From the IMG/VR virus record IMGVR_UViG_3300045988_054873: a stretch of DNA of 37,747 nt; one strand, 5' to 3'. This DNA comes from a virus. The position numbers and the translations under genes are program-made. The notes below the pieces were generated by a model. It made no database searches. It saw only the letters and a list, made by a program, of their open reading frames with translations, and was not told the origin of the DNA. Below are positions 1-35,170 of this stretch, piece after piece (the stretch's first letter is position 1; each line of letters starts with the position of its first letter).

Positions 1-99
1 CCTGATTTCTGCCGGAAAGTCTCTGTATACCTCATTCATGTCTACTCTACCATTAATTCCCGGAACAGAACCATCACTGGAATACTGCCAGATATCATA
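1..99. repeat. Terminal direct repeat, identical to 37649..37747 (circular-assembly overlap or terminal redundancy)
   Basis: cctgatttctgccggaaagtctctg...ctgccagatatcata occurs at both window ends (99/99 by eye). Confidence 0.95.
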
Positions 100-594: not shown

Positions 595-763
595 ACCAAC
601 CGCCCTCCTTCAACTCTGCTTTCTTCTGTTCAATCTCTGCTGCATGATCCGCCTCGAATTTCTGCGCCTCTTCCAGAGTCATTTCTTCGAGCTCTGCAAC
701 TTTCTCCGCTGTATAACCGTAAGCGAAACTCTTTACGATTTCCTGTACTGTCTGCTCTGTCAT
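587..763 (-). CDS. Hypothetical small acidic protein (58 aa), translationally coupled to the endolysin
   Basis: ATG at 763 preceded by AAAGGAG plus 6 nt. MTEQTVQEIVKSFAYGYTAEKVAELEEMTLEEAQKFEADHAAEIEQKKAELKEGGWFE. Its stop overlaps the endolysin TTG start. Confidence 0.6.
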   Translation of the reverse strand: MTEQTVQEIVKSFAYGYTAEKVAELEEMTLEEAQKFEADHAAEIEQKKAELKEGGWFE

Positions 764-784: not shown

Positions 785-813
785 ACAAAAAGAGAGCCAA
801 CATTTGACTCTCT
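785..813 (-). terminator. Intrinsic terminator-like hairpin (minus strand)
   Basis: Minus-strand RNA AGAGAGUC-AAAUGUU-GGCUCUCU followed by UUUUGU (8-bp stem, one G-U). It lies immediately upstream of the SD of ORF 587..763. Confidence 0.6.
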
Positions 814-822
814 AAAAAATGA

Positions 823-851
823 TTGATATTTACTAATATATGCCATATAAT
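823..851 (+). promoter_or_regulatory. Sigma-70/SigA-type promoter for a plus-strand small RNA
   Basis: TTGATA (823-828), 17 nt, TATAAT (846-851). Confidence 0.55.
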
Positions 852-857
852 ACAAGT

Positions 858-952
858 AGAAAGAGCAATCGCCCACAAGGTGGGTTGACCTCGAATTATA
901 TGGTATATAGAATCACCACTCCTTCGCTCGCCAAAGTTCCGGGGTGGTTTTT
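858..952 (+). ncRNA. Putative ~95-nt antisense small RNA (type I antitoxin candidate)
   Basis: Runs from the promoter at 823-851 to the stem CCACTCC(916-922)/GGGGTGG(941-947) plus T5 (948-952). Contains hairpin CCCAC-AAG-GTGGG (872-884). No convincing ORF or SD. Convergent with the 30-aa peptide ORF. Confidence 0.35.
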
Positions 953-967
953 CTATGCTTTAAAACA

Positions 968-1060
968 TTATCTGATAAACGTAAAAACGAATGTCAGCAA
1001 TGCAAGAACGAACATGCCAAACGCCATAAGGTCGTTGAAATCAAAATGATTATTGTCCAT
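968..1060 (-). CDS. 30-aa hydrophobic peptide, holin-like type I toxin candidate (TxpA/BsrG-like)
   Basis: ATG at 1060 with SD GGGGGTGG 5 nt upstream. MDNNHFDFNDLMAFGMFVLALLTFVFTFIR has a single TM segment. Below the 60-aa cutoff of the ORF track. Confidence 0.5.
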   Translation of the reverse strand: MDNNHFDFNDLMAFGMFVLALLTFVFTFIR

Positions 1061-1125
1061 CAGCACCACCCCCATTCTATGTAGAATAGAGGTCAGCCAC
1101 CCTGCAACACGATTGCTCTGAATCT

Positions 1126-1154
1126 ATCTTATCATCATTTCTGCGTTACTTCAA
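1126..1154 (-). promoter_or_regulatory. Promoter-like element for the peptide mRNA (extended -10)
   Basis: Minus strand TTGAAG (1154-1149), 17 nt, TAAGAT (1131-1126) preceded by TGa. Lies directly after the holin stop. Confidence 0.4.
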
Positions 1155-1158
1155 TTTA

Positions 1159-1452
1159 TTATTCTTCTTTTCCTGCCTGCTTAATAATCTGATTCACATA
1201 CGTACTCAATCCGGCCGTTAGAATACCCTGAACGATCGAAGTGAATACCGCCATTGCCATTTCCTGACCGGTTCCGATCGGGCAACTCGCCCAGACCCAG
1301 ACAGCACACAAAGCGATTCCACATCCACCAAGAATCAACGGGATATTCTTATCAGCTACGGCCTGTGCTTTCTTCAAAGCCATTCCGACAAAGTACAGCA
1401 CCACTGCTACAACTACCAGTTCCGGTTTAATATAATTCATAATCTGTTCCAT
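1159..1452 (-). CDS. Holin (phi LC3 / phage_holin_5-like)
   Basis: 97 aa. MEQIMNYIKPELVVVAVVLYFVGMALKKAQAVADKNIPLILGGCGIALCAV... has multiple TM helices and a charged C-terminus. The N-terminal motif is typical of the LC3-family holins, and the gene sits in the lysis region. Confidence 0.8.
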   Translation of the reverse strand: MEQIMNYIKPELVVVAVVLYFVGMALKKAQAVADKNIPLILGGCGIALCAVWVWASCPIGTGQEMAMAVFTSIVQGILTAGLSTYVNQIIKQAGKEE

Positions 1453-1461
1453 GTTGTTTTC

Positions 1462-1836
1462 CTACCTTTCTTTTTCTTTCTTCTTAAGATGCAGCTCTTC
1501 AATCTCGTGCATCATCTTCGTTATCATCCCATTACCTCCCAATTCATGATACGCCTCGTACATTTCACAGAAATTCTGGTATGCATAGGACGGAATCTCT
1601 CCGATCTTCATGTACTTGTCATGATACTCGATCAGTTGGACCCGTAGCAGGAGCATTGTACCCTTGCTGTTGGCCAACCTTTCCTCTGCCTCCTTGGCGA
1701 TGCGATCATTTCTTTCCTTGGCATCTGCGATCTTCTGTTTTTTCTGCTCCTGAAGGAGCCAAATTATGTACCCCATAATGGCAGTTAAAAAGATCGGCAG
1801 GGCAATGAGATAAGTTTGAAACAAAAACTCTTTCAA
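1462..1836 (-). CDS. Membrane-anchored coiled-coil protein (N-terminal TM), function unknown, possibly lysis-associated
   Basis: TTG at 1836 with GGAAGGAGG 6 nt upstream, directly after the Tal stop. (M)KEFLFQTYLIALPIFLTAIMGYIIWLLQEQKKQK... The longer track ORF (to 2010) overlaps Tal and lacks an SD. Confidence 0.6.
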   Translation of the reverse strand: MKEFLFQTYLIALPIFLTAIMGYIIWLLQEQKKQKIADAKERNDRIAKEAEERLANSKGTMLLLRVQLIEYHDKYMKIGEIPSYAYQNFCEMYEAYHELGGNGMITKMMHEIEELHLKKKEKER

Positions 1837-1849
1837 GCTTGCCTCCTTC

Positions 1850-4800
1850 CTAATTTGGGAAAAATATGACGCTGAATTTCCACTGCTCCAATGTTTTTGC
1901 AGCACCACTGTTCTGGTAGAATCTTCCAGTGATCGTATTGCCTTTTGATACAGGGATGGCGATACATCCCGACGACCAAAGCCTTGCCGTTGATCCTGTA
2001 GTGGTTTCAAAGTTCATATATTCAGCCCCATTCAATAGCAACCCGGCAATTCTTCTCACCACGCTAGAAGTTCCCATACCAGAAAATAGTCCTCCCAGCG
2101 AAACAAGCGCGTATCCGTTGCTAGGTACGTTATAAACCGCAACATTTGAAAAACTACCATTTGCTAAAGATACATTTGTTCCGGACTTGCTATAAAATTT
2201 AGGGAGCCTGTAATGTGCTCCACCAAGTGTCTGTCCGGAACTATTGGTAACATCTCCCCCTTTTGCTTTGATGCCGCCGGTTACGTAAAATGATCCATCT
2301 GTCAGTTGCAAATACGCATCCTTATACGTCCCACTTGAATTGAAACCATACATCCGAAGCGTATTATTACAAGAACCAATATAGCCAGTCAGCCCCTTGT
2401 TTCCTGATGGAAATTTAAGGTGACCATTATCTCCGGCAGATCCCCGAGGATTGATGGTGACATCAGAGTCCATGACAGCGCCGGATTTATTCACCTTATT
2501 ATTAAAAGATGTAGGAGTAATGCTCACTTTGACTTTGTCGCTATCCTGAAGTAATATCTCTCCTCTTCCTACTGATGTCCCAGCTGGTATTATATCCTGC
2601 ATACTCGTCTGTGCGCCAACCGCTAACCCATCATTTCCTAATGTTGACATTGTTCCATCTGAATTTGTTATAGTAATTTCTCTTAACGATGGATTAAGCT
2701 CGATAGTTGTAATATTTGTGATGCTCGGCATTTCATCATTGATCGTATATTCCTCTGTTTCAATCGATAATACTCCGTTTTCAATTTTCGTTAATCCCTC
2801 AAATACGTACCGTTCATCTTCTTTGTGGAACTTATTGTTAAACACCGATCCGTTAATCTCCACACCATTGATCTGCCCGGCATTAACAATCCCAAGATCT
2901 GCCGTGATCGCAGACAACTGATCCACTTCGATGTTCTCCGCCACGAACTTATACAACTGCCACGCACTTCCATCCCATCGGTAAGTTGCATTCTGGATCA
3001 GACCTTCCACGGTTCCGGTGTGTTTCCACAACATTCCTTCCGTCTTTTCTTCCGGTTCTGTATCAGACACTTCGATTTTTCCGGCATCTCCTTTTTCACC
3101 CTGATCCCCTTTCGGTCCTTTGATATTTCCGATATATGCCCACTTTGCTACGTCTGCCGCACCGGCACGCACACAGGCATACAGGTTGCCGGTAAATGGA
3201 TTCACATACCGGTCATTGACTCTTGCGTCACTGATTCCTGACTCTGGGAAGATCATTCCGTCTGTACTGGTTCCCAGCAGCTTATCTCCGGCATACCATT
3301 CACTGCCACGGGTTCCATCCTCTCCTTTCAGCGTTGGCGTGGTCTGTTCCCCGTTTTTATCTGTGATCGTCAGGGATGTGTCCGGATTCACCTTGATGAT
3401 CGGACTGACTCCATCCTCTCCGGCTTTTCCCGGTTCTCCGTCTGCGCCTTTCTCTCCGTCGTTCACATTGCTGACCGTCACCTCATACTGTCCCCGGAAG
3501 ATTCCACCGGAATCCGTTGCTTCAAACCGGTAGGTCACTTTGTCTGGCACATCCGCAGCGTTCACTGTGACCTCTGCACCTAAACTCAGTTCTTCTCCAT
3601 CCTTATACCATTGGATATTGAACTGATCCGCAATGTTCAGACCACCATTCTTCACAACAGCTATCAGCGTGGTAGAACCTTCCCCATTCTTGAACACGAT
3701 CCCATTACTGGAGATCACCGAACAGGTATAGACTCGATTGGCAGCAATCAGATTATTGACCTGCTGCAACAGCTCCGGATCAATCTGGGACTGCAGTTCC
3801 TCATAATTGGAGAATGTCGTCTTATTTTTTGTCTCATCTGTCAGGCTTTCTACCTGCTCTTTCACTCGTGCCTGCAAGTACAGTGGCGGATTGAACTCTT
3901 CGTCGATAATCGTGAAAGTATCCCCCACATGAGCATCCACATATCCTTCCACTTCATAGCTCAGCTTCGGCACGCATCCTTTCTTCAGCTCCGCCAGTGC
4001 CTGACCGTATAAGGTATTCACGTTGTCCGTATCATAATTCCAGACCTTTGCGATATACCGGTCATTGGCCGAGCTCAACAAATTGGACGGAAAACGGTCT
4101 CTTGCCTGTGGTGCCAGAATGTTCCTGTTGCCTGCGGCGGTCATGTATTCTACGTTTCCATTTTCATCATATTCCGTCTTCGCCAGACTGGTAACAGTTA
4201 AGTTATCCCGACCAAACGGCCGGATTGCCGTAAACAGTTCCGTAATATCTGACGTCTTAGTAATGCCCTCGATATTAACACCGTACCGCAGACGTTCATC
4301 CGTCCGGTTCTGACCAATCCCCTGCACGGTATCCGAGTGCTGCTTATAGACATTCAGCACAATCTTCTGGAGCGAAAAGTCCGGATTCAATACCGGCACA
4401 AACTCCGCCTCTGCTGAAAACACATTAGCCAGAGAAAAGATCCGGGCAAGGATCGTATCGGATCCCGTCCATTCATGGCTGATCCGTTTGTCTGATACCT
4501 CATTAATTCCCAGCGTGACCGTCTTCTCCCAGTCAAATACTGCCAGGTATTCCGCAAAAGACATGGCTTTCGGGGCCTTGTATGCCGTGTTCTCTTCATT
4601 GAGCAACTCAAAGGACAACGAGTACGCCATTACGTCCACAATTTCCTCATCCTGCGTGGACTGGACAATGTTCAAGTAATAATCCCGGCCGTCTTTCTGG
4701 AAAGCCAACTTGTTTCCTACGGTCAGATACTGAGCATCCTCATGGTCTGCCGGCGCCTTGAACGAAAAGGTATTCGCCGTCCCTTCCAGGTAAGAATGTA

Positions 4801-4900
4801 GCTCGTCATCATAATAATGCAGTGCATCCGGCGCTTCATTATCCATGCGCGCACACACCACATCATGCGTGCTCAGGATCGTTATTCTGATTGATTCCAT
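1850..4900 (-). CDS. Tail-associated/minor structural protein (Tal-like N-terminus) with collagen-like segments and a C-terminal receptor-binding region
   Basis: 1016 aa directly downstream of Dit. The N-terminal ~380 aa resemble the prophage-tail/minor-structural-protein family. G-X-Y runs are GEKGADGEPGKAGEDG, GEDGTRG and GPKGDQGEKGDAGK. Confidence 0.8.
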   Translation of the reverse strand: MESIRITILSTHDVVCARMDNEAPDALHYYDDELHSYLEGTANTFSFKAPADHEDAQYLTVGNKLAFQKDGRDYYLNIVQSTQDEEIVDVMAYSLSFELLNEENTAYKAPKAMSFAEYLAVFDWEKTVTLGINEVSDKRISHEWTGSDTILARIFSLANVFSAEAEFVPVLNPDFSLQKIVLNVYKQHSDTVQGIGQNRTDERLRYGVNIEGITKTSDITELFTAIRPFGRDNLTVTSLAKTEYDENGNVEYMTAAGNRNILAPQARDRFPSNLLSSANDRYIAKVWNYDTDNVNTLYGQALAELKKGCVPKLSYEVEGYVDAHVGDTFTIIDEEFNPPLYLQARVKEQVESLTDETKNKTTFSNYEELQSQIDPELLQQVNNLIAANRVYTCSVISSNGIVFKNGEGSTTLIAVVKNGGLNIADQFNIQWYKDGEELSLGAEVTVNAADVPDKVTYRFEATDSGGIFRGQYEVTVSNVNDGEKGADGEPGKAGEDGVSPIIKVNPDTSLTITDKNGEQTTPTLKGEDGTRGSEWYAGDKLLGTSTDGMIFPESGISDARVNDRYVNPFTGNLYACVRAGAADVAKWAYIGNIKGPKGDQGEKGDAGKIEVSDTEPEEKTEGMLWKHTGTVEGLIQNATYRWDGSAWQLYKFVAENIEVDQLSAITADLGIVNAGQINGVEINGSVFNNKFHKEDERYVFEGLTKIENGVLSIETEEYTINDEMPSITNITTIELNPSLREITITNSDGTMSTLGNDGLAVGAQTSMQDIIPAGTSVGRGEILLQDSDKVKVSITPTSFNNKVNKSGAVMDSDVTINPRGSAGDNGHLKFPSGNKGLTGYIGSCNNTLRMYGFNSSGTYKDAYLQLTDGSFYVTGGIKAKGGDVTNSSGQTLGGAHYRLPKFYSKSGTNVSLANGSFSNVAVYNVPSNGYALVSLGGLFSGMGTSSVVRRIAGLLLNGAEYMNFETTTGSTARLWSSGCIAIPVSKGNTITGRFYQNSGAAKTLEQWKFSVIFFPN

Positions 4901-32846: not shown

Positions 32847-33581
32847 TCACATACCTCCTATTCTCATTTGTGCGTTACACTCATTGATCTGTTCTTCCAG
32901 ATATCGAGGGAGTTCGTAGCAATCAATGAAATCATGCACATCTGCCAGATATTTCCTCTTGATACTCTTATAGGAAGATACCAGTCCGTACTCCCGTTTG
33001 ATCTGCGTGTAAATATCAGAAAATACCTGTCCTCTAACGCTACTGTCCTTGTATGCTTCGCTATCTTTGCCACCAAGGACGTTTACCACTCTCCGCTTTA
33101 CGTGCTTAGAAACCTCTTCAATTTCACAGCCGTACAGTGGCATATCGTTTTCCAGACTGTAAATCTTGTCTTCCACCTTATCTACACGCTCGTTCAATTC
33201 CGTGTTTCCCTGTGCAAGCAATTTAATCTGTTCAAATGTTGTCAGTTGCTTCTGATAACCTCCGGTCTTTCTAATCGCCGGAAGAACTTCACTTGTCACC
33301 CAGTGTTTAAATCTCTTTGCTGATTCCAACTTACTGCCGAAAATCAAAGCATATAAACCAGATTCGTTAATTACTGGCGTATTCTGCATTCTTCCGATGG
33401 AATCCTGAATTGGGACTTCATCTTTATCCTCTGAATCAACATGATCCTGAATAGCTTTTGTTGCTCTTTCATATCCCAAAGCTTCCGCTACGTCTTTTCC
33501 TATAAAATAAGTTTCATTATTAAGTTGTACAGTTCGGATTTCTCCAAACTCTTCATTATTAAAAATCTGTAAATCGTTCAT
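32847..33581 (-). CDS. Bro-N domain antirepressor-like protein
   Basis: 244 aa. MNDLQIFNNEEFGEIRTVQLNNETYFIGKDVAEALGY...RFKHWVTSEVLPAIRKTGGY is a Bro-N domain. The C-terminal domain is helical. Confidence 0.75.
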   Translation of the reverse strand: MNDLQIFNNEEFGEIRTVQLNNETYFIGKDVAEALGYERATKAIQDHVDSEDKDEVPIQDSIGRMQNTPVINESGLYALIFGSKLESAKRFKHWVTSEVLPAIRKTGGYQKQLTTFEQIKLLAQGNTELNERVDKVEDKIYSLENDMPLYGCEIEEVSKHVKRRVVNVLGGKDSEAYKDSSVRGQVFSDIYTQIKREYGLVSSYKSIKRKYLADVHDFIDCYELPRYLEEQINECNAQMRIGGM

Positions 33582-33592
33582 GGTACTCCTTT

Positions 33593-34030
33593 CTACATTC
33601 CAGCACCCCTAAATATAACTACCATCGAAGGAAATGGGGCTACGTTTTTACTATTCCCAAACTTCAAACGTCCCCTCAAGAATCTGATTTCTGAACGATG
33701 CTGGATATAGTCATGAAAATATCTTGTGTCTGTTCTTGCTGGTATCAACATAACAACAATCGTGTTATCTTTCGTGCCTTCTCTGTATGCCTTTTTAACC
33801 CAGTCTGTAATTGTTCTACCATACGGAGGATTGCAAAACACGCGATACCCACCCCAGTCCTTTGAAAGACCATCGTCTTCCTTCGTGAAATACTTTTCAC
33901 ACTTGTGATTCTGTTTGTCAGCGCAAGGATCAAGGTTGAAATGAAATTCCTGATCAAGTTCTTTGAAGAAGTCATCAGGTGTTGACCACTGATCCGTCTT
34001 GCTACTGTACATAACATTGATATTTGCCAT
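33593..34030 (-). CDS. dam: Phage Dam-type DNA N6-adenine methyltransferase
   Basis: 145 aa. ...DQWSTPDDFFKELDQEFHFNLDPCA...VFCNPPYG...ARTDTRYFH carries the NPPY catalytic motif. Confidence 0.8.
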   Translation of the reverse strand: MANINVMYSSKTDQWSTPDDFFKELDQEFHFNLDPCADKQNHKCEKYFTKEDDGLSKDWGGYRVFCNPPYGRTITDWVKKAYREGTKDNTIVVMLIPARTDTRYFHDYIQHRSEIRFLRGRLKFGNSKNVAPFPSMVVIFRGAGM

Positions 34031-34038
34031 TTTCCCTC

Positions 34039-34404
34039 CTAATCACCAATAAGTAACATAAGTGTTCCGGTTGGTGCTTCTCCCCTATGCATAAAGCATG
34101 GATCATTATAGTTATAACCAAATCTCTTATCGTATGTTTTTAGTTTAATCATCCATTCTTGTTCCCTTGTTGGATTCCTGTGATTGTGCTTATCTCCGGA
34201 TGCTCTTTCTTCGACAATCTCAAACACAAAATGATTTTCTCCATATTTGTTAAAATCTTCTTGCATTAGTTTATTGATATGCCTATTAGCTTTAAGATTA
34301 TTGATATGCAGTTTTTTACGGAATCTAGGTTTTGTAGTGCGTCCGACATAACACTTTCCATTTGATATACACTTTAATAGGTAAATGTATTCTGTCTCAT
34401 TCAT
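34039..34404 (-). CDS. GIY-YIG nuclease domain protein (catalytic domain only)
   Basis: ATG at 34404 (SD AAGGAGG), overlapping the cro-like stop. MNETEYIYLLKCISNGKCYVGRT...R...H...E...GYNYN. Confidence 0.7.
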   Translation of the reverse strand: MNETEYIYLLKCISNGKCYVGRTTKPRFRKKLHINNLKANRHINKLMQEDFNKYGENHFVFEIVEERASGDKHNHRNPTREQEWMIKLKTYDKRFGYNYNDPCFMHRGEAPTGTLMLLIGD

Positions 34405-34630
34405 CTTTCCCCACCTCCTTGTCCACAAACTCTGAAATATCAACGTCTAGGTATTTTGAAATAGCAACCATGACATCTACCTTCGGCTTGCTTTTATCTC
34501 TTTTCCAATCGGACAAAAGCATTGGAGAAAATTTCAAATCTGTTGCTACTCTGTAAGGCGTAATGCCTTTACTCTTAATGATTTTTTCAAAGCTTGAATA
34601 AGAGTGAGCATATTTCTTTTTTTCGCTCAA
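34397..34630 (-). CDS. Cro-like XRE-family HTH protein
   Basis: TTG start (SD AAAGGAG plus 8 nt). 77 aa. ...GITPYRVATDLKFSPMLLSDWKRDKSKPKVDVMVAISKYLDVDISEF. Confidence 0.75.
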   Translation of the reverse strand: MSEKKKYAHSYSSFEKIIKSKGITPYRVATDLKFSPMLLSDWKRDKSKPKVDVMVAISKYLDVDISEFVDKEVGKDE

Positions 34631-34828: not shown

Positions 34829-35170
34829 ATGTACGAACGATATCAGAAATTACTAGACGAAAAAAATTTAAAAAATTCAGATGTTGCTAAAGGAAGTGGC
34901 GTATCTAATATGACTCTTTCTGATTGGAAACGAGGGAAAACCACACCCAAAACAGAAACCATTCAGAAAATTGCAGATTTTTTAGGCGTATCAGTAGACT
35001 ATCTTGTAAATGGCGAAGAAAAAGAAATATCAGCACCAGACCAGGCAGATTTATGGATAGCAATAAGAAAAGATAAGAAATTATTAGAAGCATTAGAAAA
35101 ATATATGAGCCTATCGGACAAAAAGAAAAAGCACGTCATTGATACGATAGACGTGCTTAGTGAAGAATAG
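34829..35170 (+). CDS. XRE-family HTH repressor-like protein (no S24 peptidase domain)
   Basis: 113 aa. ...LKNSDVAKGSGVSNMTLSDWKRGKTTPKTETIQKIADFLGVSVDYLV. The only plus-strand gene, divergent from the cro-like gene. Confidence 0.8.
   Translation: MYERYQKLLDEKNLKNSDVAKGSGVSNMTLSDWKRGKTTPKTETIQKIADFLGVSVDYLVNGEEKEISAPDQADLWIAIRKDKKLLEALEKYMSLSDKKKKHVIDTIDVLSEE

Follow-up and report, generated by a model that had tools for sequence, protein, structure and literature searches.

A probable bsrG/SR4-like type I toxin-antitoxin cassette inserted between the holin and endolysin genes of a Lachnospiraceae phage

The viral DNA analyzed here (IMG/VR record IMGVR_UViG_3300045988_054873; 37,747 nucleotides, hereafter the window) carries a gene for a true holin, a 97-aa Phage_holin_5_2 protein in a Pfam search, followed by a small ORF and an endolysin gene. 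The holin stop codon is separated by a spacer of 395 nt (1158–764) from the ATG of the small ORF, which is most likely the one at 763–761 (MTEQT...). A previous reading made from the sequence only had described this gap as 374 bp long and not empty; it is indeed occupied, but its length to the likely ATG is 395 nt. Phage L002 holds 47 nt at the same site, its holin being 99% identical and its downstream genes 93% identical to those of the window. Since L002 is a near-identical phage with a clean empty site, the 395-nt segment (764–1158, no strand assigned) is an insertion, and the comparison of holin–endolysin spacing in related phages, proposed earlier as a check, came out in favour of this view. 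At another locus (L004), a different gene comes directly after the cassette terminator. The window also encodes an HTH repressor and an anti-repressor, and the phage looks temperate. No recombinase was found in the window by tblastn with the integrases and the resolvase of related loci; as the window ends within the endolysin gene, a recombinase may be encoded beyond its end. No tRNA or tmRNA genes are present in the window.

On the minus strand, a putative toxin promoter (1154–1126) starts 5 nt past the holin stop codon and comprises the −35 hexamer TTGAAG (1154–1149), a 17-nt spacer and the extended −10 element TGATAAGAT (1134–1126). The transcript is predicted to start near 1119, which would give a 5′ UTR extending from 1119 to 1061 (minus strand, AGAGCAAUCG...). 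An ORF follows (1060–968, minus strand, with its stop codon at 970–968) that encodes the 30-aa peptide MDNNHFDFNDLMAFGMFVLALLTFVFTFIR and is preceded, 5 nt before the ATG, by the SD sequence GGGGGTGG, also given as GGGGGUGG (1073–1066). At the other edge of the cassette, the minus-strand intrinsic terminator that had been placed near 813–785 was recovered by the terminator scan at 813–791 and is given here as 813–786 (AGAGAGUCAAAUGUUGGCUCUCU followed by UUUUUG, 10 pairs). It sits between the holin and the endolysin operon and is likely the 3′ end of a toxin mRNA of about 334 nt. The plus strand carries a convergent promoter, TTGATA-17-TATAAT (823–851; scan score 11/12), and, as predicted from promoter and terminator signals and from its fold, a small antisense RNA of about 95 nt (858–952), which in the models ends in the expected terminator hairpin (ACCACUCC...GGGGUGGU, 915–948, overlapping a U-run at 948–952) and has a predicted 5′ hairpin at 869–888. 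The ORF with its SD, both promoters and the stem of the small RNA thus lie where the sequence-only reading had them. A second plus-strand site, TTGACC-17-TAGAAT (885–913), was rejected as its spacing is lost in locus L001.

We considered the possibility that there is no functional gene pair at this locus, the segment being a decaying remnant or a mere terminator or spacer in which the ORF and the 'promoters' occur by chance. The window taken alone is compatible with this: a single-sequence promoter scan returned 2 promoter-like sites against 2.4 expected from shuffles, and the fold of the small RNA had a z-score of −1.3. Because these motifs are not above chance in the window alone, their significance was drawn from about 140 unique related cassettes, gathered with degenerate DNA patterns; the counts below refer to 142 unique cassettes, which are haplotypes and not phylogenetically independent. 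In these relatives, substitutions follow a coding pattern, the signals are conserved and two helices show compensatory changes, which makes a chance arrangement highly improbable.

The toxin promoter of the window scored 8/12, under the scanner threshold. At its position, the pattern TTGnnn-16..18-T[A/G]nnnT was present in 103 of the 142 unique cassettes, with a 17-nt spacer in 82 of these matches and TG before the −10 hexamer in 87; the hexamers are conserved among relatives while the spacer sequence is variable. The plus-strand promoter was even more widely kept, TTGnnn-16..18-TAnnnT being found at the same place and on the same strand in 133/142, here too with a variable spacer sequence. 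The far terminator occurs with covarying stems in loci L001, L004 and L112, among others, but only in 30 of the 142 unique cassettes by strict criteria. This rules it out as a universal part of the cassette and makes the 3′ end of the toxin mRNA uncertain in most relatives. In some members, a hairpin in the middle of the cassette carries a U-run in the mRNA sense as well and might end the transcript ahead of the 3′ partner of the long-distance helix described below.

The reading frame of the peptide evolves under coding constraint. Outside the search pattern, variability at the three codon positions was 0.03/0.03/0.26 and 0.16/0.01/0.28, and the indel that distinguishes the ORF of L004 is in frame. 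The window, L001 and L004 share a 5′ UTR that is 100% identical, in contrast to their ORFs, which differ. A program-made ORF listing prolongs the toxin ORF to an upstream ATG at 1075; the frame upstream is not kept among relatives, and therefore the start is likely at 1060. The dominance of third-position variation, together with this unconserved upstream frame, indicates that the ORF is coding. A 35-aa reading of it has been deposited as DAN45097.1 ('putative Holin-like Toxin'), and a near-identical peptide is RUMGNA_03001 (EDN76542.1) of Mediterraneibacter gnavus ATCC 29149. In the annotated records examined, the peptide is 'hypothetical' or unannotated.

The peptide has a polar N-terminus, a single hydrophobic helix and a basic C-terminal residue; it is shorter than 60 aa and contains the LMxxFG core (DLMAFGMF followed by VLALLTFVFTFI). 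Among 17 family variants, residues D7, F8, D10, L11, M12, F14, G15, M16, F17, L21, L22 and T23 are invariant. The earlier suggestion to compare it with the Hol_Tox family was followed: the window peptide alone scored 21.3 bits (E = 2.5e-4) against Pfam PF16935, slightly under the curated cut-off of 23.3, and all 17 variants matched this model, no other family being matched meaningfully. The best variant (E = 4.3e-7) reached an E-value close to that of TxpA, which has a score of 31.3 bits; BsrG reaches 34.5 bits against the same model. A comparison of the peptide profile with PDB sequences gave nothing meaningful, and BLAST with the region and tblastn with the peptide against deposited phage genomes returned only holin-level matches or none.

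The predicted small RNA is fully complementary to the toxin 3′ UTR. Its 3′ end falls 16 nt short of the toxin stop codon, so that the predicted overlap (end at 952, stop codon at 970–968) is restricted to the 3′ UTR. Relatives were aligned with a hand-specified structure, a covariance model (R1) and a model-based alignment; RNAalifold on a plain MAFFT alignment had given a poor consensus in which the divergent terminator arms were misaligned. The covariance model found the RNA in 110 places, and its strong matches were all antisense and downstream of the peptide gene. Compensatory changes affected all 8 helix pairs of the terminator (94.8% of cells paired), whose loop, CAAAGU, and U-run are nearly invariant. 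No Rfam family matched: a search of positions 400–1700 with Rfam 15 (E ≤ 10) gave only chance matches, the top one, ncr952, lying on the wrong strand and reaching 17.7 bits where the threshold is 100. The alignments thus point to an antisense RNA that is complementary to the toxin mRNA and whose gene has a promoter and a terminator of its own.

The small RNA had also been proposed to carry an anti-SD sequence, and inspection confirmed that CACCACUCC (914–922) is complementary to GGGGUGGUG over 9 bp with one G-U. Since the arms of a perfect hairpin read alike on either strand, the small RNA has as its 5′ arm the very sequence that is the anti-SD of the mRNA 3′ UTR, and the match cannot be told apart from a mere consequence of the terminator stem. 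The complementarity is weaker in divergent clades, in which the stems read CCUUCCC or UCCCCC.

The two ends of the predicted toxin mRNA are complementary to each other. An inverted repeat relates 862–892 to 1089–1119 (31 nt, 71% complementary) and another relates 899–913 to 1074–1088 (80% complementary); within them lie the three imperfect inverted-repeat blocks that had been noticed before. The 3′ arm of the resulting long-distance helix (862–892, minus strand, GAGGUCAACCCACCUUGUGGGCGAUUGCUCU) belongs to the toxin 3′ UTR and is predicted to pair with nucleotides 1–31 of the mRNA and to be the target of the 5′ end of the small RNA as well; the 5′ arm corresponds to mRNA nucleotides 1–33 (1119–1087). 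Across relatives this helix was 95% paired, 8 of 10 pairs had changed on both sides and none of 500 shuffles scored as high, the slide controls being 28–50% paired. We considered the possibility that the identity of the arms resulted from gene conversion at the DNA level or from a shared protein-binding site. Yet, read in the sense of the toxin mRNA, 39 mismatches were G·U and only 4 were A·C, indicating that pairing acts on the toxin-mRNA strand and making both explanations unlikely. Judging from this covariation, the toxin mRNA folds back so that its first 33 or so nucleotides are paired with a stretch of its 3′ part located inside the antisense target. The 5′ end of the small RNA (AGAGCAAUCG) and UUGACCUC are repeats of the toxin leader. 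This mimicry of the 5′ UTR and the mutual complementarity of the two UTRs, which had been called unusual, are therefore real, but they are not unusual, as they correspond to helix P1 of bsrG mRNA (PMC3834814).

In folding models, the full-length toxin mRNA reached −107.9 kcal/mol (z = −5.7). In partition-function folds of 75 members, the 5′ end was predicted to become more accessible once the 3′ UTR was blocked (unpaired probability 0.52, against 0.06 without the block), the corresponding value for the SD staying near 0.13. A local leader hairpin, ACCUCUAUUCU/AGAAUGGGGGU (1094–1068), which appears in the short fold, would cover the SD. The SD is thus predicted to be paired in every modelled state, which leaves toxin translation unexplained and counts against a bsrG/SR4-like reading.

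Such permanent sequestration of the SD would suit a gene expressed under special conditions only, and the peptide could then be an antisense-regulated small membrane protein that is not meant to kill its own cell but would serve superinfection exclusion, abortive infection or modulation of the host membrane in the manner of ComI, a 30-aa competence inhibitor. The NCBIfam ComI model matched the peptide weakly, with a score (15.6 bits, E = 0.01) far under its cut-off of 55, and Hol_Tox genes are common accessories of temperate Staphylococcus and Streptococcus phages. On the other side, addiction-type loci are typically carried by plasmids and found in tandem arrays, both of which were encountered in this family; the RNAs are organized as in bsrG/SR4, a proven toxin system; and TxpA and BsrG are toxic when overproduced (PMC2887945; PMC3834814). 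We therefore regard a membrane protein with such a role as improbable.

The genomic distribution of the cassette bears on its role. It was found in 49 viral contigs and, among the matches listed, in 117 of 120 genome loci, mostly of Lachnospiraceae; it is also carried by Enterocloster plasmids, some Phascolarctobacterium contain copies, and one genome (L188) has a tandem array of 7 units, an arrangement seen for other type I loci. Besides M. gnavus ATCC 29149, cultured candidate carriers are Enterocloster bolteae with plasmid pCbo51 and Hungatella hathewayi DSM 13479. Its other neighbours include integrase, resolvase, small terminase, tail-fibre and Gp15 genes. A holin gene lay directly upstream on the same strand in 20 of the 48 viral contigs with upstream sequence, and an endolysin gene downstream in 17 of 42. 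The corresponding figures for species-representative genome loci with flanking sequence were 0/112 and 0/97 among the matches listed, and only one listed genome locus had a GH25 match anywhere in 8 kb. The lysis-cassette position, which had been presented as an unusual trait, therefore recurs in one set of phages and is ruled out as a general property of the family. The cassette found in the holin–endolysin gap is, by these comparisons, a real self-contained, mobile and autonomous unit.

If the peptide were an accessory of lysis, it would act as an additional pore-former or timing device in the lysis programme of the phage, the small RNA silencing it in the lysogen and the terminator modulating read-through into the endolysin operon. 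The recurrence just described speaks for this, the more so as it involves two holin families (Phage_holin_5_2 and Phage_holin_1) and several endolysin types (GH25, Amidase_2, Amidase_3 and ChW-amidase). The cassette is also co-oriented with the late genes, so that late transcripts would include the toxin ORF, and no promoter was visible between the cassette terminator and the endolysin operon, either in the promoter scan or in the sequence. Precedents exist in hokW-sokW of prophage Sp5, as outlined in PMC8621323, and in Tmp1, the founding Hol_Tox member, which is reported, as cited in PMC11357604, to complement a lysis-defective phage. Yet the near-identical phage L002 lacks the cassette, which is thus dispensable for lysis; the genome loci listed have neither holin nor endolysin next to it; and it is also found beside non-lysis genes, on plasmids and in a tandem array. 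Furthermore, in a PHROG search the peptide matched only families of unknown function, none of them connected with lysis, and belonged to no canonical holin or lysis family. We consider a lysis accessory unlikely. There is likewise only a small chance that the cassette was co-opted into lysis control where it is sited between holin and endolysin. The toxin ORF would in that case be part of late transcripts from the holin gene, and a constitutive small RNA and a strong terminator would control both the production of the extra pore-forming peptide and the passage of transcription into the endolysin operon, so that a selfish toxin-antitoxin module would at the same time act as a switch for lysis timing.

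The explanation that we favour, and hold to be probable, is that the segment is a bsrG/SR4-like type I toxin-antitoxin cassette acting as a mobile accessory module ('moron') of a temperate Lachnospiraceae phage. The type I assignment is supported by the empty site in L002, the coding ORF, the Hol_Tox matches and the conserved or covarying RNA signals, and this comparative evidence bears out the txpA/RatA and bsrG/SR4 layout first suggested for the inserted cassette. The weak extended −10 promoter just past the holin gene would drive synthesis of the ~334-nt mRNA for the 30-aa Hol_Tox membrane peptide. The free mRNA would be closed, its first ~33 nt being paired with its own 3′ UTR and its SD being engaged by ACCACCCC of the 3′ UTR or by CCUCU of the local leader hairpin; in this closed state, it would be expected to be stable but poorly translated. 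The stronger, near-consensus convergent promoter would produce the ~95-nt RNA, a perfect complement of the toxin 3′ UTR. If SR4 is taken as a guide, the first contact between the two RNAs would take place at the conserved terminator loop. The growing duplex would displace the 5′ arm of the mRNA, leaving the SD in its local hairpin, and would presumably offer RNase III a long double strand, so that the toxin mRNA would be both silenced and degraded. If the small RNA were lost, for instance upon loss of the element, synthesis of the peptide would follow, with damage to the membrane; such a pair could serve prophage or plasmid maintenance, or defence.

Most work on type I systems concerns Enterobacteria, Bacillus, Staphylococcus, Enterococcus, Helicobacter and Clostridioides difficile. 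With the present cassette, a large family of coherent sequence is defined in gut Lachnospiraceae, spread over phages, plasmids and chromosomes, and its many natural variants provide unusually clear covariation for the 5′–3′ lock and for the antitoxin terminator. From outside Bacillus, this covariation lends the bsrG/SR4 mechanism an independent line of evolutionary support. The covariance model may be used to annotate gut phage and MAG data, and the cassette itself might serve as a maintenance or counter-selection module in gut Clostridia that are difficult to manipulate genetically, and as a marker of accessory-gene ('moron') insertion sites in the late operons of phages.

Several known systems share part of this organization. 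The 'holtox' genes of temperate Staphylococcus and Streptococcus phages (PF16935; PMC6507118, PMC11357604) are likewise variable accessory Hol_Tox ORFs near the lysis module, but these reports deal with the ORF only, without an antisense RNA or an mRNA architecture, and with different hosts. In the Gram-negative systems hok/Sok and aapA1/IsoA1, the full-length toxin mRNA is also locked by pairing of its ends, with a closed ribosome-binding site; the antisense RNA, however, binds the 5′ leader of a 3′-processed mRNA, whereas here it would bind the 3′ arm of the lock, and the toxin families are unrelated to the cassette peptide. The hokW-sokW system of E. coli O157 prophage Sp5, which is reported to help phage release on induction, resembles the cassette as a type I pair on a prophage and as a precedent for a link between such a peptide and lysis, but its toxin family and host are different, and the outline in PMC8621323 makes no mention of a holin–endolysin position.

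The txpA/RatA pair of the B. subtilis skin element and EF3263 of Enterococcus faecalis also resemble the cassette, combining a Hol_Tox peptide with a 3′-overlapping antisense RNA on mobile or excisable elements. RatA measures 222 nt. TxpA has 59 aa against 30 for the peptide described here, and the cassette peptide family aligned weakly with TxpA profiles (hhalign probability 24%). An RNA of about 110 nt has been detected opposite the EF3263 3′ UTR, and Clostridiales were already known to contain TxpA-like sequences (Fozo et al. 2010, PMC2887945). T1TAdb places BsrE/G/H and TxpA/RatA among the families whose antisense RNA also overlaps the ORF; here, in contrast, the predicted small RNA stops 16 nt past the stop codon. 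RatA binding has, furthermore, been reported to leave the SD helix unchanged (PMC3834814).

The best match is bsrG/SR4 of the B. subtilis prophage SPbeta, with some differences. The peptide is shorter (30 aa vs 38 in BsrG) and lacks the Lys-rich tail, the predicted antisense RNA of ~95 nt does not reach the ORF whereas SR4 is 180 nt long, homology between the RNA sequences is undetectable, with no Rfam match, and the host is a member of the Lachnospiraceae, not Bacillus. Both loci are prophage-borne and associate a Hol_Tox-type peptide with a convergent antisense RNA, predicted in the case of the cassette, that covers the mRNA 3′ end. In bsrG mRNA, helix P1 joins nucleotides 1–35 to 232–262 and is opened by SR4, which makes nucleotides 1–33 single-stranded and lengthens the SD helix (Jahn & Brantl 2013, PMC3834814). 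In the cassette too, the partner of the 5′ ~33 nt would lie in the 3′ part of the mRNA, immediately ahead of the terminator and inside the antisense target, a location that necessarily makes the antisense RNA resemble the leader, and the SD would again be held in a helix. In the folding models, the 5′ arm would be released once the 3′ UTR is blocked, which mirrors the probing result obtained with SR4, and the conserved terminator loop fits the first contact between SR4 and bsrG mRNA, which takes place through the SR4 terminator loop (PMC3834814).

At the cassette end of the window every gene lies on the minus strand. A tail-fibre gene at 4900..1850 is followed by genes for a 126-aa membrane protein (about 1842..1462; PHROG 4105, unknown function) and a 97-aa holin (1452..1159; Pfam Phage_holin_5_2, E = 3e-27); next after the gap come a small ORF (MTEQT..., ATG most likely 763..761) and a GH25 endolysin gene, which begins at 594 and extends beyond the window end. 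A divergently oriented HTH repressor (34829..35170, +) and an anti-repressor (32847..33581, -) suggest that the phage is temperate. At 33593-34443, a GIY-YIG homing-endonuclease-like ORF of 134 aa (34443..34039, -) lies immediately upstream of a 145-aa ORF (-) matching a DNA methyltransferase profile at positions 58-203 of 345 only; a methylase gene may have been interrupted or truncated there by a homing endonuclease.

The elements that the sequence-only reading had placed in the holin-endolysin gap were all recovered at the coordinates it gave. They comprise the 30-aa ORF (1060..968) with GGGGGTGG 5 nt upstream of its ATG, the toxin promoter TTGAAG-17-TGATAAGAT (1154..1126), the opposing promoter TTGATA-17-TATAAT (823..851; promoter scan score 11/12), a plus-strand hairpin with U-run (915..952) that folds as predicted, the minus-strand terminator (813..791), the inverted repeat 862-892/1089-1119 (31 nt, 71% complementary) and a second complementary block, 899-913/1074-1088 (80%). 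In this one sequence such motifs do not exceed chance (two promoter-like sites in the region versus 2.4 expected from shuffles), and the sRNA fold, with z = -1.3, is unremarkable as well. The argument for the cassette is therefore a comparative one, drawn from its relatives.

Of 80 IMG/VR loci with related holins, L001 (91% identity) and L004 (89%) share the gap sequence. The most telling locus, L002, has a holin 99% identical and downstream genes 93% identical to those of the window, but lacks the cassette: its holin stop codon lies 47 nt from the MTEQT start, versus 395 nt in the window. In L004 a different gene immediately follows the cassette terminator, so that the edges of the module match the coordinates first given for the cassette (785-1158). 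Judged against L002 and L004, the cassette is an insertion.

Further relatives were retrieved with a degenerate DNA pattern for DLM[A/S]FGMF. This gave 51 viral loci on 49 distinct contigs, all encoding the peptide, and at least 117 family loci in species-representative genomes (117/120 among the matches listed). Genome carriers among those listed are mostly Lachnospiraceae (Dorea, Blautia, Mediterraneibacter, Enterocloster, Lacrimispora, Hungatella, Faecalicatena, Sellimonas), and some are Phascolarctobacterium.

The peptide is 27-35 aa long in the family, with a polar, variable N-terminus, a short, variable tail and an invariant core, D-F-x-D-L-M-x-F-G-M-F-x-x-x-L-L-T. Variability per codon position, in codons outside the search pattern, was 0.03/0.03/0.26 and 0.16/0.01/0.28, and relatives do not keep the frame that lies upstream of the SD-proximal ATG. 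By these comparative signatures the ORF is genuinely coding, with 1060 as its likely start. The window peptide matches Pfam Hol_Tox at a borderline level (E = 2.5e-4, 21.3 bits; cut-off 23.3), and all 17 peptide variants match (best E 4.3e-7); the same model gives TxpA 31 bits and BsrG 34 bits. The label 'hypothetical' is attached to close relatives, in M. gnavus among others. The window peptide (968-1060) also weakly matches NCBIfam ComI (E = 0.01, 15.6 bits; cut-off 55), the competence inhibitor of 30 aa from B. subtilis plasmid pBS32; this hints at a hydrophobic core common to ComI-like and Hol_Tox peptides. That the peptide has a non-suicidal membrane function is, in our judgement, quite unlikely.

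Signals on both strands recur in the 142 unique cassettes. The sRNA promoter, TTGnnn-16..18 nt-TAnnnT, is in place in 133 of them with a variable spacer sequence; the toxin promoter is weaker, being found in 103, of which 87 carry the TG extension. A covariance model of the sRNA, built from 33 sequences with the structure set by hand, gave 110 matches in 100 sources (852..958, +, in the window), and the strong ones are all antisense to the peptide gene, just downstream; the sRNA matched no Rfam family. In the terminator helix, 94.8% of positions were paired and 8/8 pairs had changed on both sides, in an alignment fitted to the model and thus somewhat biased toward structure; 0/500 shuffles reached these values, and slid controls were 29-58% paired. 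While the stem covaries, its loop (window 925-936, +) is nearly invariant (CAAAGU; sRNA ..GCCAAAGUU.., mRNA ..AACUUUGRC..), as is the U-run that follows. The mRNA-side loop holds UUUG, which fits the YUNR U-turn, a motif common in antisense recognition loops. Weak model matches (29-33 bits) fall on the toxin leader in four loci, L098:535-649(+), L117:7979-8065(+), L125:7174-7262(+) and L193:3280-3413(+), and in several loci the similarity of the two arms reaches back into both promoters. These sequence similarities suggest that the antitoxin gene originated as an inverted copy of the toxin gene's promoter and leader.

Nucleotides 1-10 of the predicted toxin mRNA covary with a block of the 3' UTR, as in AGAGCAAUCG with CGAUUGCUCU, GGAACAACCG with CGGUUGUUCC, GGACACCG with CGGUGUCC, GGCAAUCG with CGAUUGCC and GGAACAAUUG with CAAUUGUUCC. 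This helix reaches 95% pairing in the cassette alignment, and 8/10 of its pairs have changed on both sides (0/500 shuffles as high; slid controls 28-50% paired). Its inner eight positions comprised 423 Watson-Crick, 39 G·U, 4 A·C and 6 other mismatched pairs over 59 distinct, phylogenetically non-independent haplotypes. We considered the possibility that DNA-level homogenisation of the repeat causes the pairing. The 39:4 excess of G·U over A·C makes this unlikely and places selection for pairing on the toxin-mRNA strand. That the cassette has no function is a reading we regard as very improbable.

Because of this pairing the toxin mRNA must run through the sRNA gene; in the window it would measure about 334 nt and end at the strong terminator 813..791. 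Strict criteria detect no far terminator in 112 of the 142 unique cassettes. The predicted fold of the 334-nt RNA (-107.9 kcal/mol, z = -5.7; 0/100 shuffles as stable) pairs nt 1-33 with the 3' UTR, the SD with ACCACCCC in the 3' UTR and the start-codon region with the ORF end; in a version ending at 900, the SD is shut in a local hairpin, ACCUCUAUUCU/AGAAUGGGGGU. In partition-function folding of 75 diverse members, the mean unpaired probability of the SD was 0.14 in the free mRNA, 0.13 with the 3' UTR blocked (sRNA bound) and 0.13 after truncation behind the ORF, and that of the first 8 nt was 0.06 in the free mRNA and 0.52 with the 3' UTR blocked.

The sequence-only reading had called the location inside a lysis cassette unusual; this location did not prove general. 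A holin lies directly upstream on the same strand in 20/48 viral contigs and an endolysin downstream in 17/42; the holins belong to two families, the endolysins to several types. Other viral cassettes follow tail-fibre genes or lie between Gp15 and a ~1000-aa protein, and further neighbours include a small terminase, integrases, a resolvase and a DNA ligase. Among the matches listed, these holins were upstream in 0/112 species-representative genome loci, these endolysins downstream in 0/97, and GH25 matched anywhere in 8 kb in one genome locus only. The lysis cassette is therefore one of the sites at which a mobile module has repeatedly inserted, and lying there does not define the module. We think it rather unlikely that the cassette is a lysis accessory. 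Homologues (102 aa) of the 126-aa pre-holin protein (1462-1842) directly follow the cassette in L102, L117 and L125, viral loci in which it is placed after a tail-fibre gene; the cassette thus also inserts at the tail/lysis module boundary. In the window, an intrinsic terminator (within 764-813; 10-bp stem and U-run) and the antisense promoter both lie between the holin and the small-ORF/endolysin operon, and between terminator and operon only a ribosome-binding site, no promoter-like site, was found. To reach the endolysin operon, late transcription must therefore get past the terminator, by read-through or antitermination. In L002, which lacks the cassette, there is no terminator between holin and downstream genes.

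Copies also occur on mobilizable Enterocloster bolteae plasmids of 44-51 kb: pCbo51 (NZ_CP053230.1, L252:3001-3264, 82% identical), NZ_CP022465.2 and NZ_CP069521.1, in stretches without an annotated feature in the PLSDB table. Enterocloster aldenensis NZ_BAABZL010000002.1 (L188:1000-3350) carries seven tandem units spaced about 330-345 nt, each with an sRNA-model match, encoding MGYSFQDLMAFGLFLLALLTFIFNNRK twice, MKHFDFKDMMSFGMFILALLTFIYLICH three times, MKHFDFKDLMAFGMFILALLTFVFTYIR and one degenerate peptide (..MAFLECSLALL..). A 154-aa ORF (L188:440-904) adjoins the array, and a gene of that length, annotated 'metal-dependent hydrolase', adjoins the pCbo51 cassette. Phascolarctobacterium (Negativicutes) MAGs or isolates L146, L179, L196, L206, L235, L241 and L242 have members differing in SD context and tail (e.g. 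MKNYDFKDLMSFGMFLLALLTFIRLMVQ); the long 5'/3' inverted repeat is kept in L146, L179, L241 and L242, and the sRNA model matches L146, L179, L196 and L206. The family may thus have spread horizontally outside Lachnospiraceae, or these copies may result from errors in MAG binning. L190, L243, L232 and L250 are among the few genome loci that lack the long inverted repeat. Viral contig L105 (IMGVR_UViG_3300029352_000075) shares toxin gene and leader with L094, and has unrelated sequence without an sRNA-model match downstream of the peptide gene (about 2780-2870); it looks like an orphan toxin, produced either by recombination or by misassembly.

The comparisons, which show an insertion, a coding ORF related to Hol_Tox, conserved promoter and terminator signals on both strands and two covarying helices, support the proposal of a type I toxin-antitoxin-like cassette, and a bsrG/SR4-like one is the best-supported reading and a likely one. 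By analogy, both RNAs would be transcribed with the predicted ends, contact would begin at the loop, and the sRNA would displace the mRNA 5' arm, RNase III would cleave the pair, the peptide would be toxic, and the cassette might serve maintenance or defence. In bsrG/SR4, a system of prophage SPbeta whose behaviour was determined experimentally, helix P1 of the bsrG mRNA pairs nt 1-35 with nt 232-262, just before the terminator; the SR4 terminator loop is the site of first contact, and SR4 binding leaves nt 1-33 single-stranded while the SD helix grows from 4 to 8 bp. SR4 acts both by inhibiting translation and by promoting decay through RNase III (PMC3834814). The predicted opening of the cassette's 5' arm when the 3' UTR is blocked resembles this behaviour. 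Unlike bsrG/SR4, the cassette has a shorter peptide, an RNA of about 95 nt (predicted) that stops short of the ORF, no detectable RNA sequence homology and a different host clade. T1TAdb gives sequestration of the SD by an anti-SD, long-distance pairing of the 5' and 3' ends and antisense RNAs on the 3' side as standard determinants of Gram-positive type I families. TxpA-like ORFs were known in Clostridiales from Fozo et al. (PMC2887945), who also detected an RNA of ~110 nt opposite the Enterococcus homologue's 3' UTR. The 5'-UTR-mimic design, earlier flagged as unusual, is textbook bsrG architecture (PMC3834814): an antitoxin antisense to the 3' arm of P1 therefore resembles the 5' arm, and a 'leader-mimic' sRNA is a direct consequence of the known design. 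The cassette probably belongs to that known type I design; its value lies in the family it represents, which is large, widespread among gut Clostridia and unannotated, and which covaries unusually cleanly.
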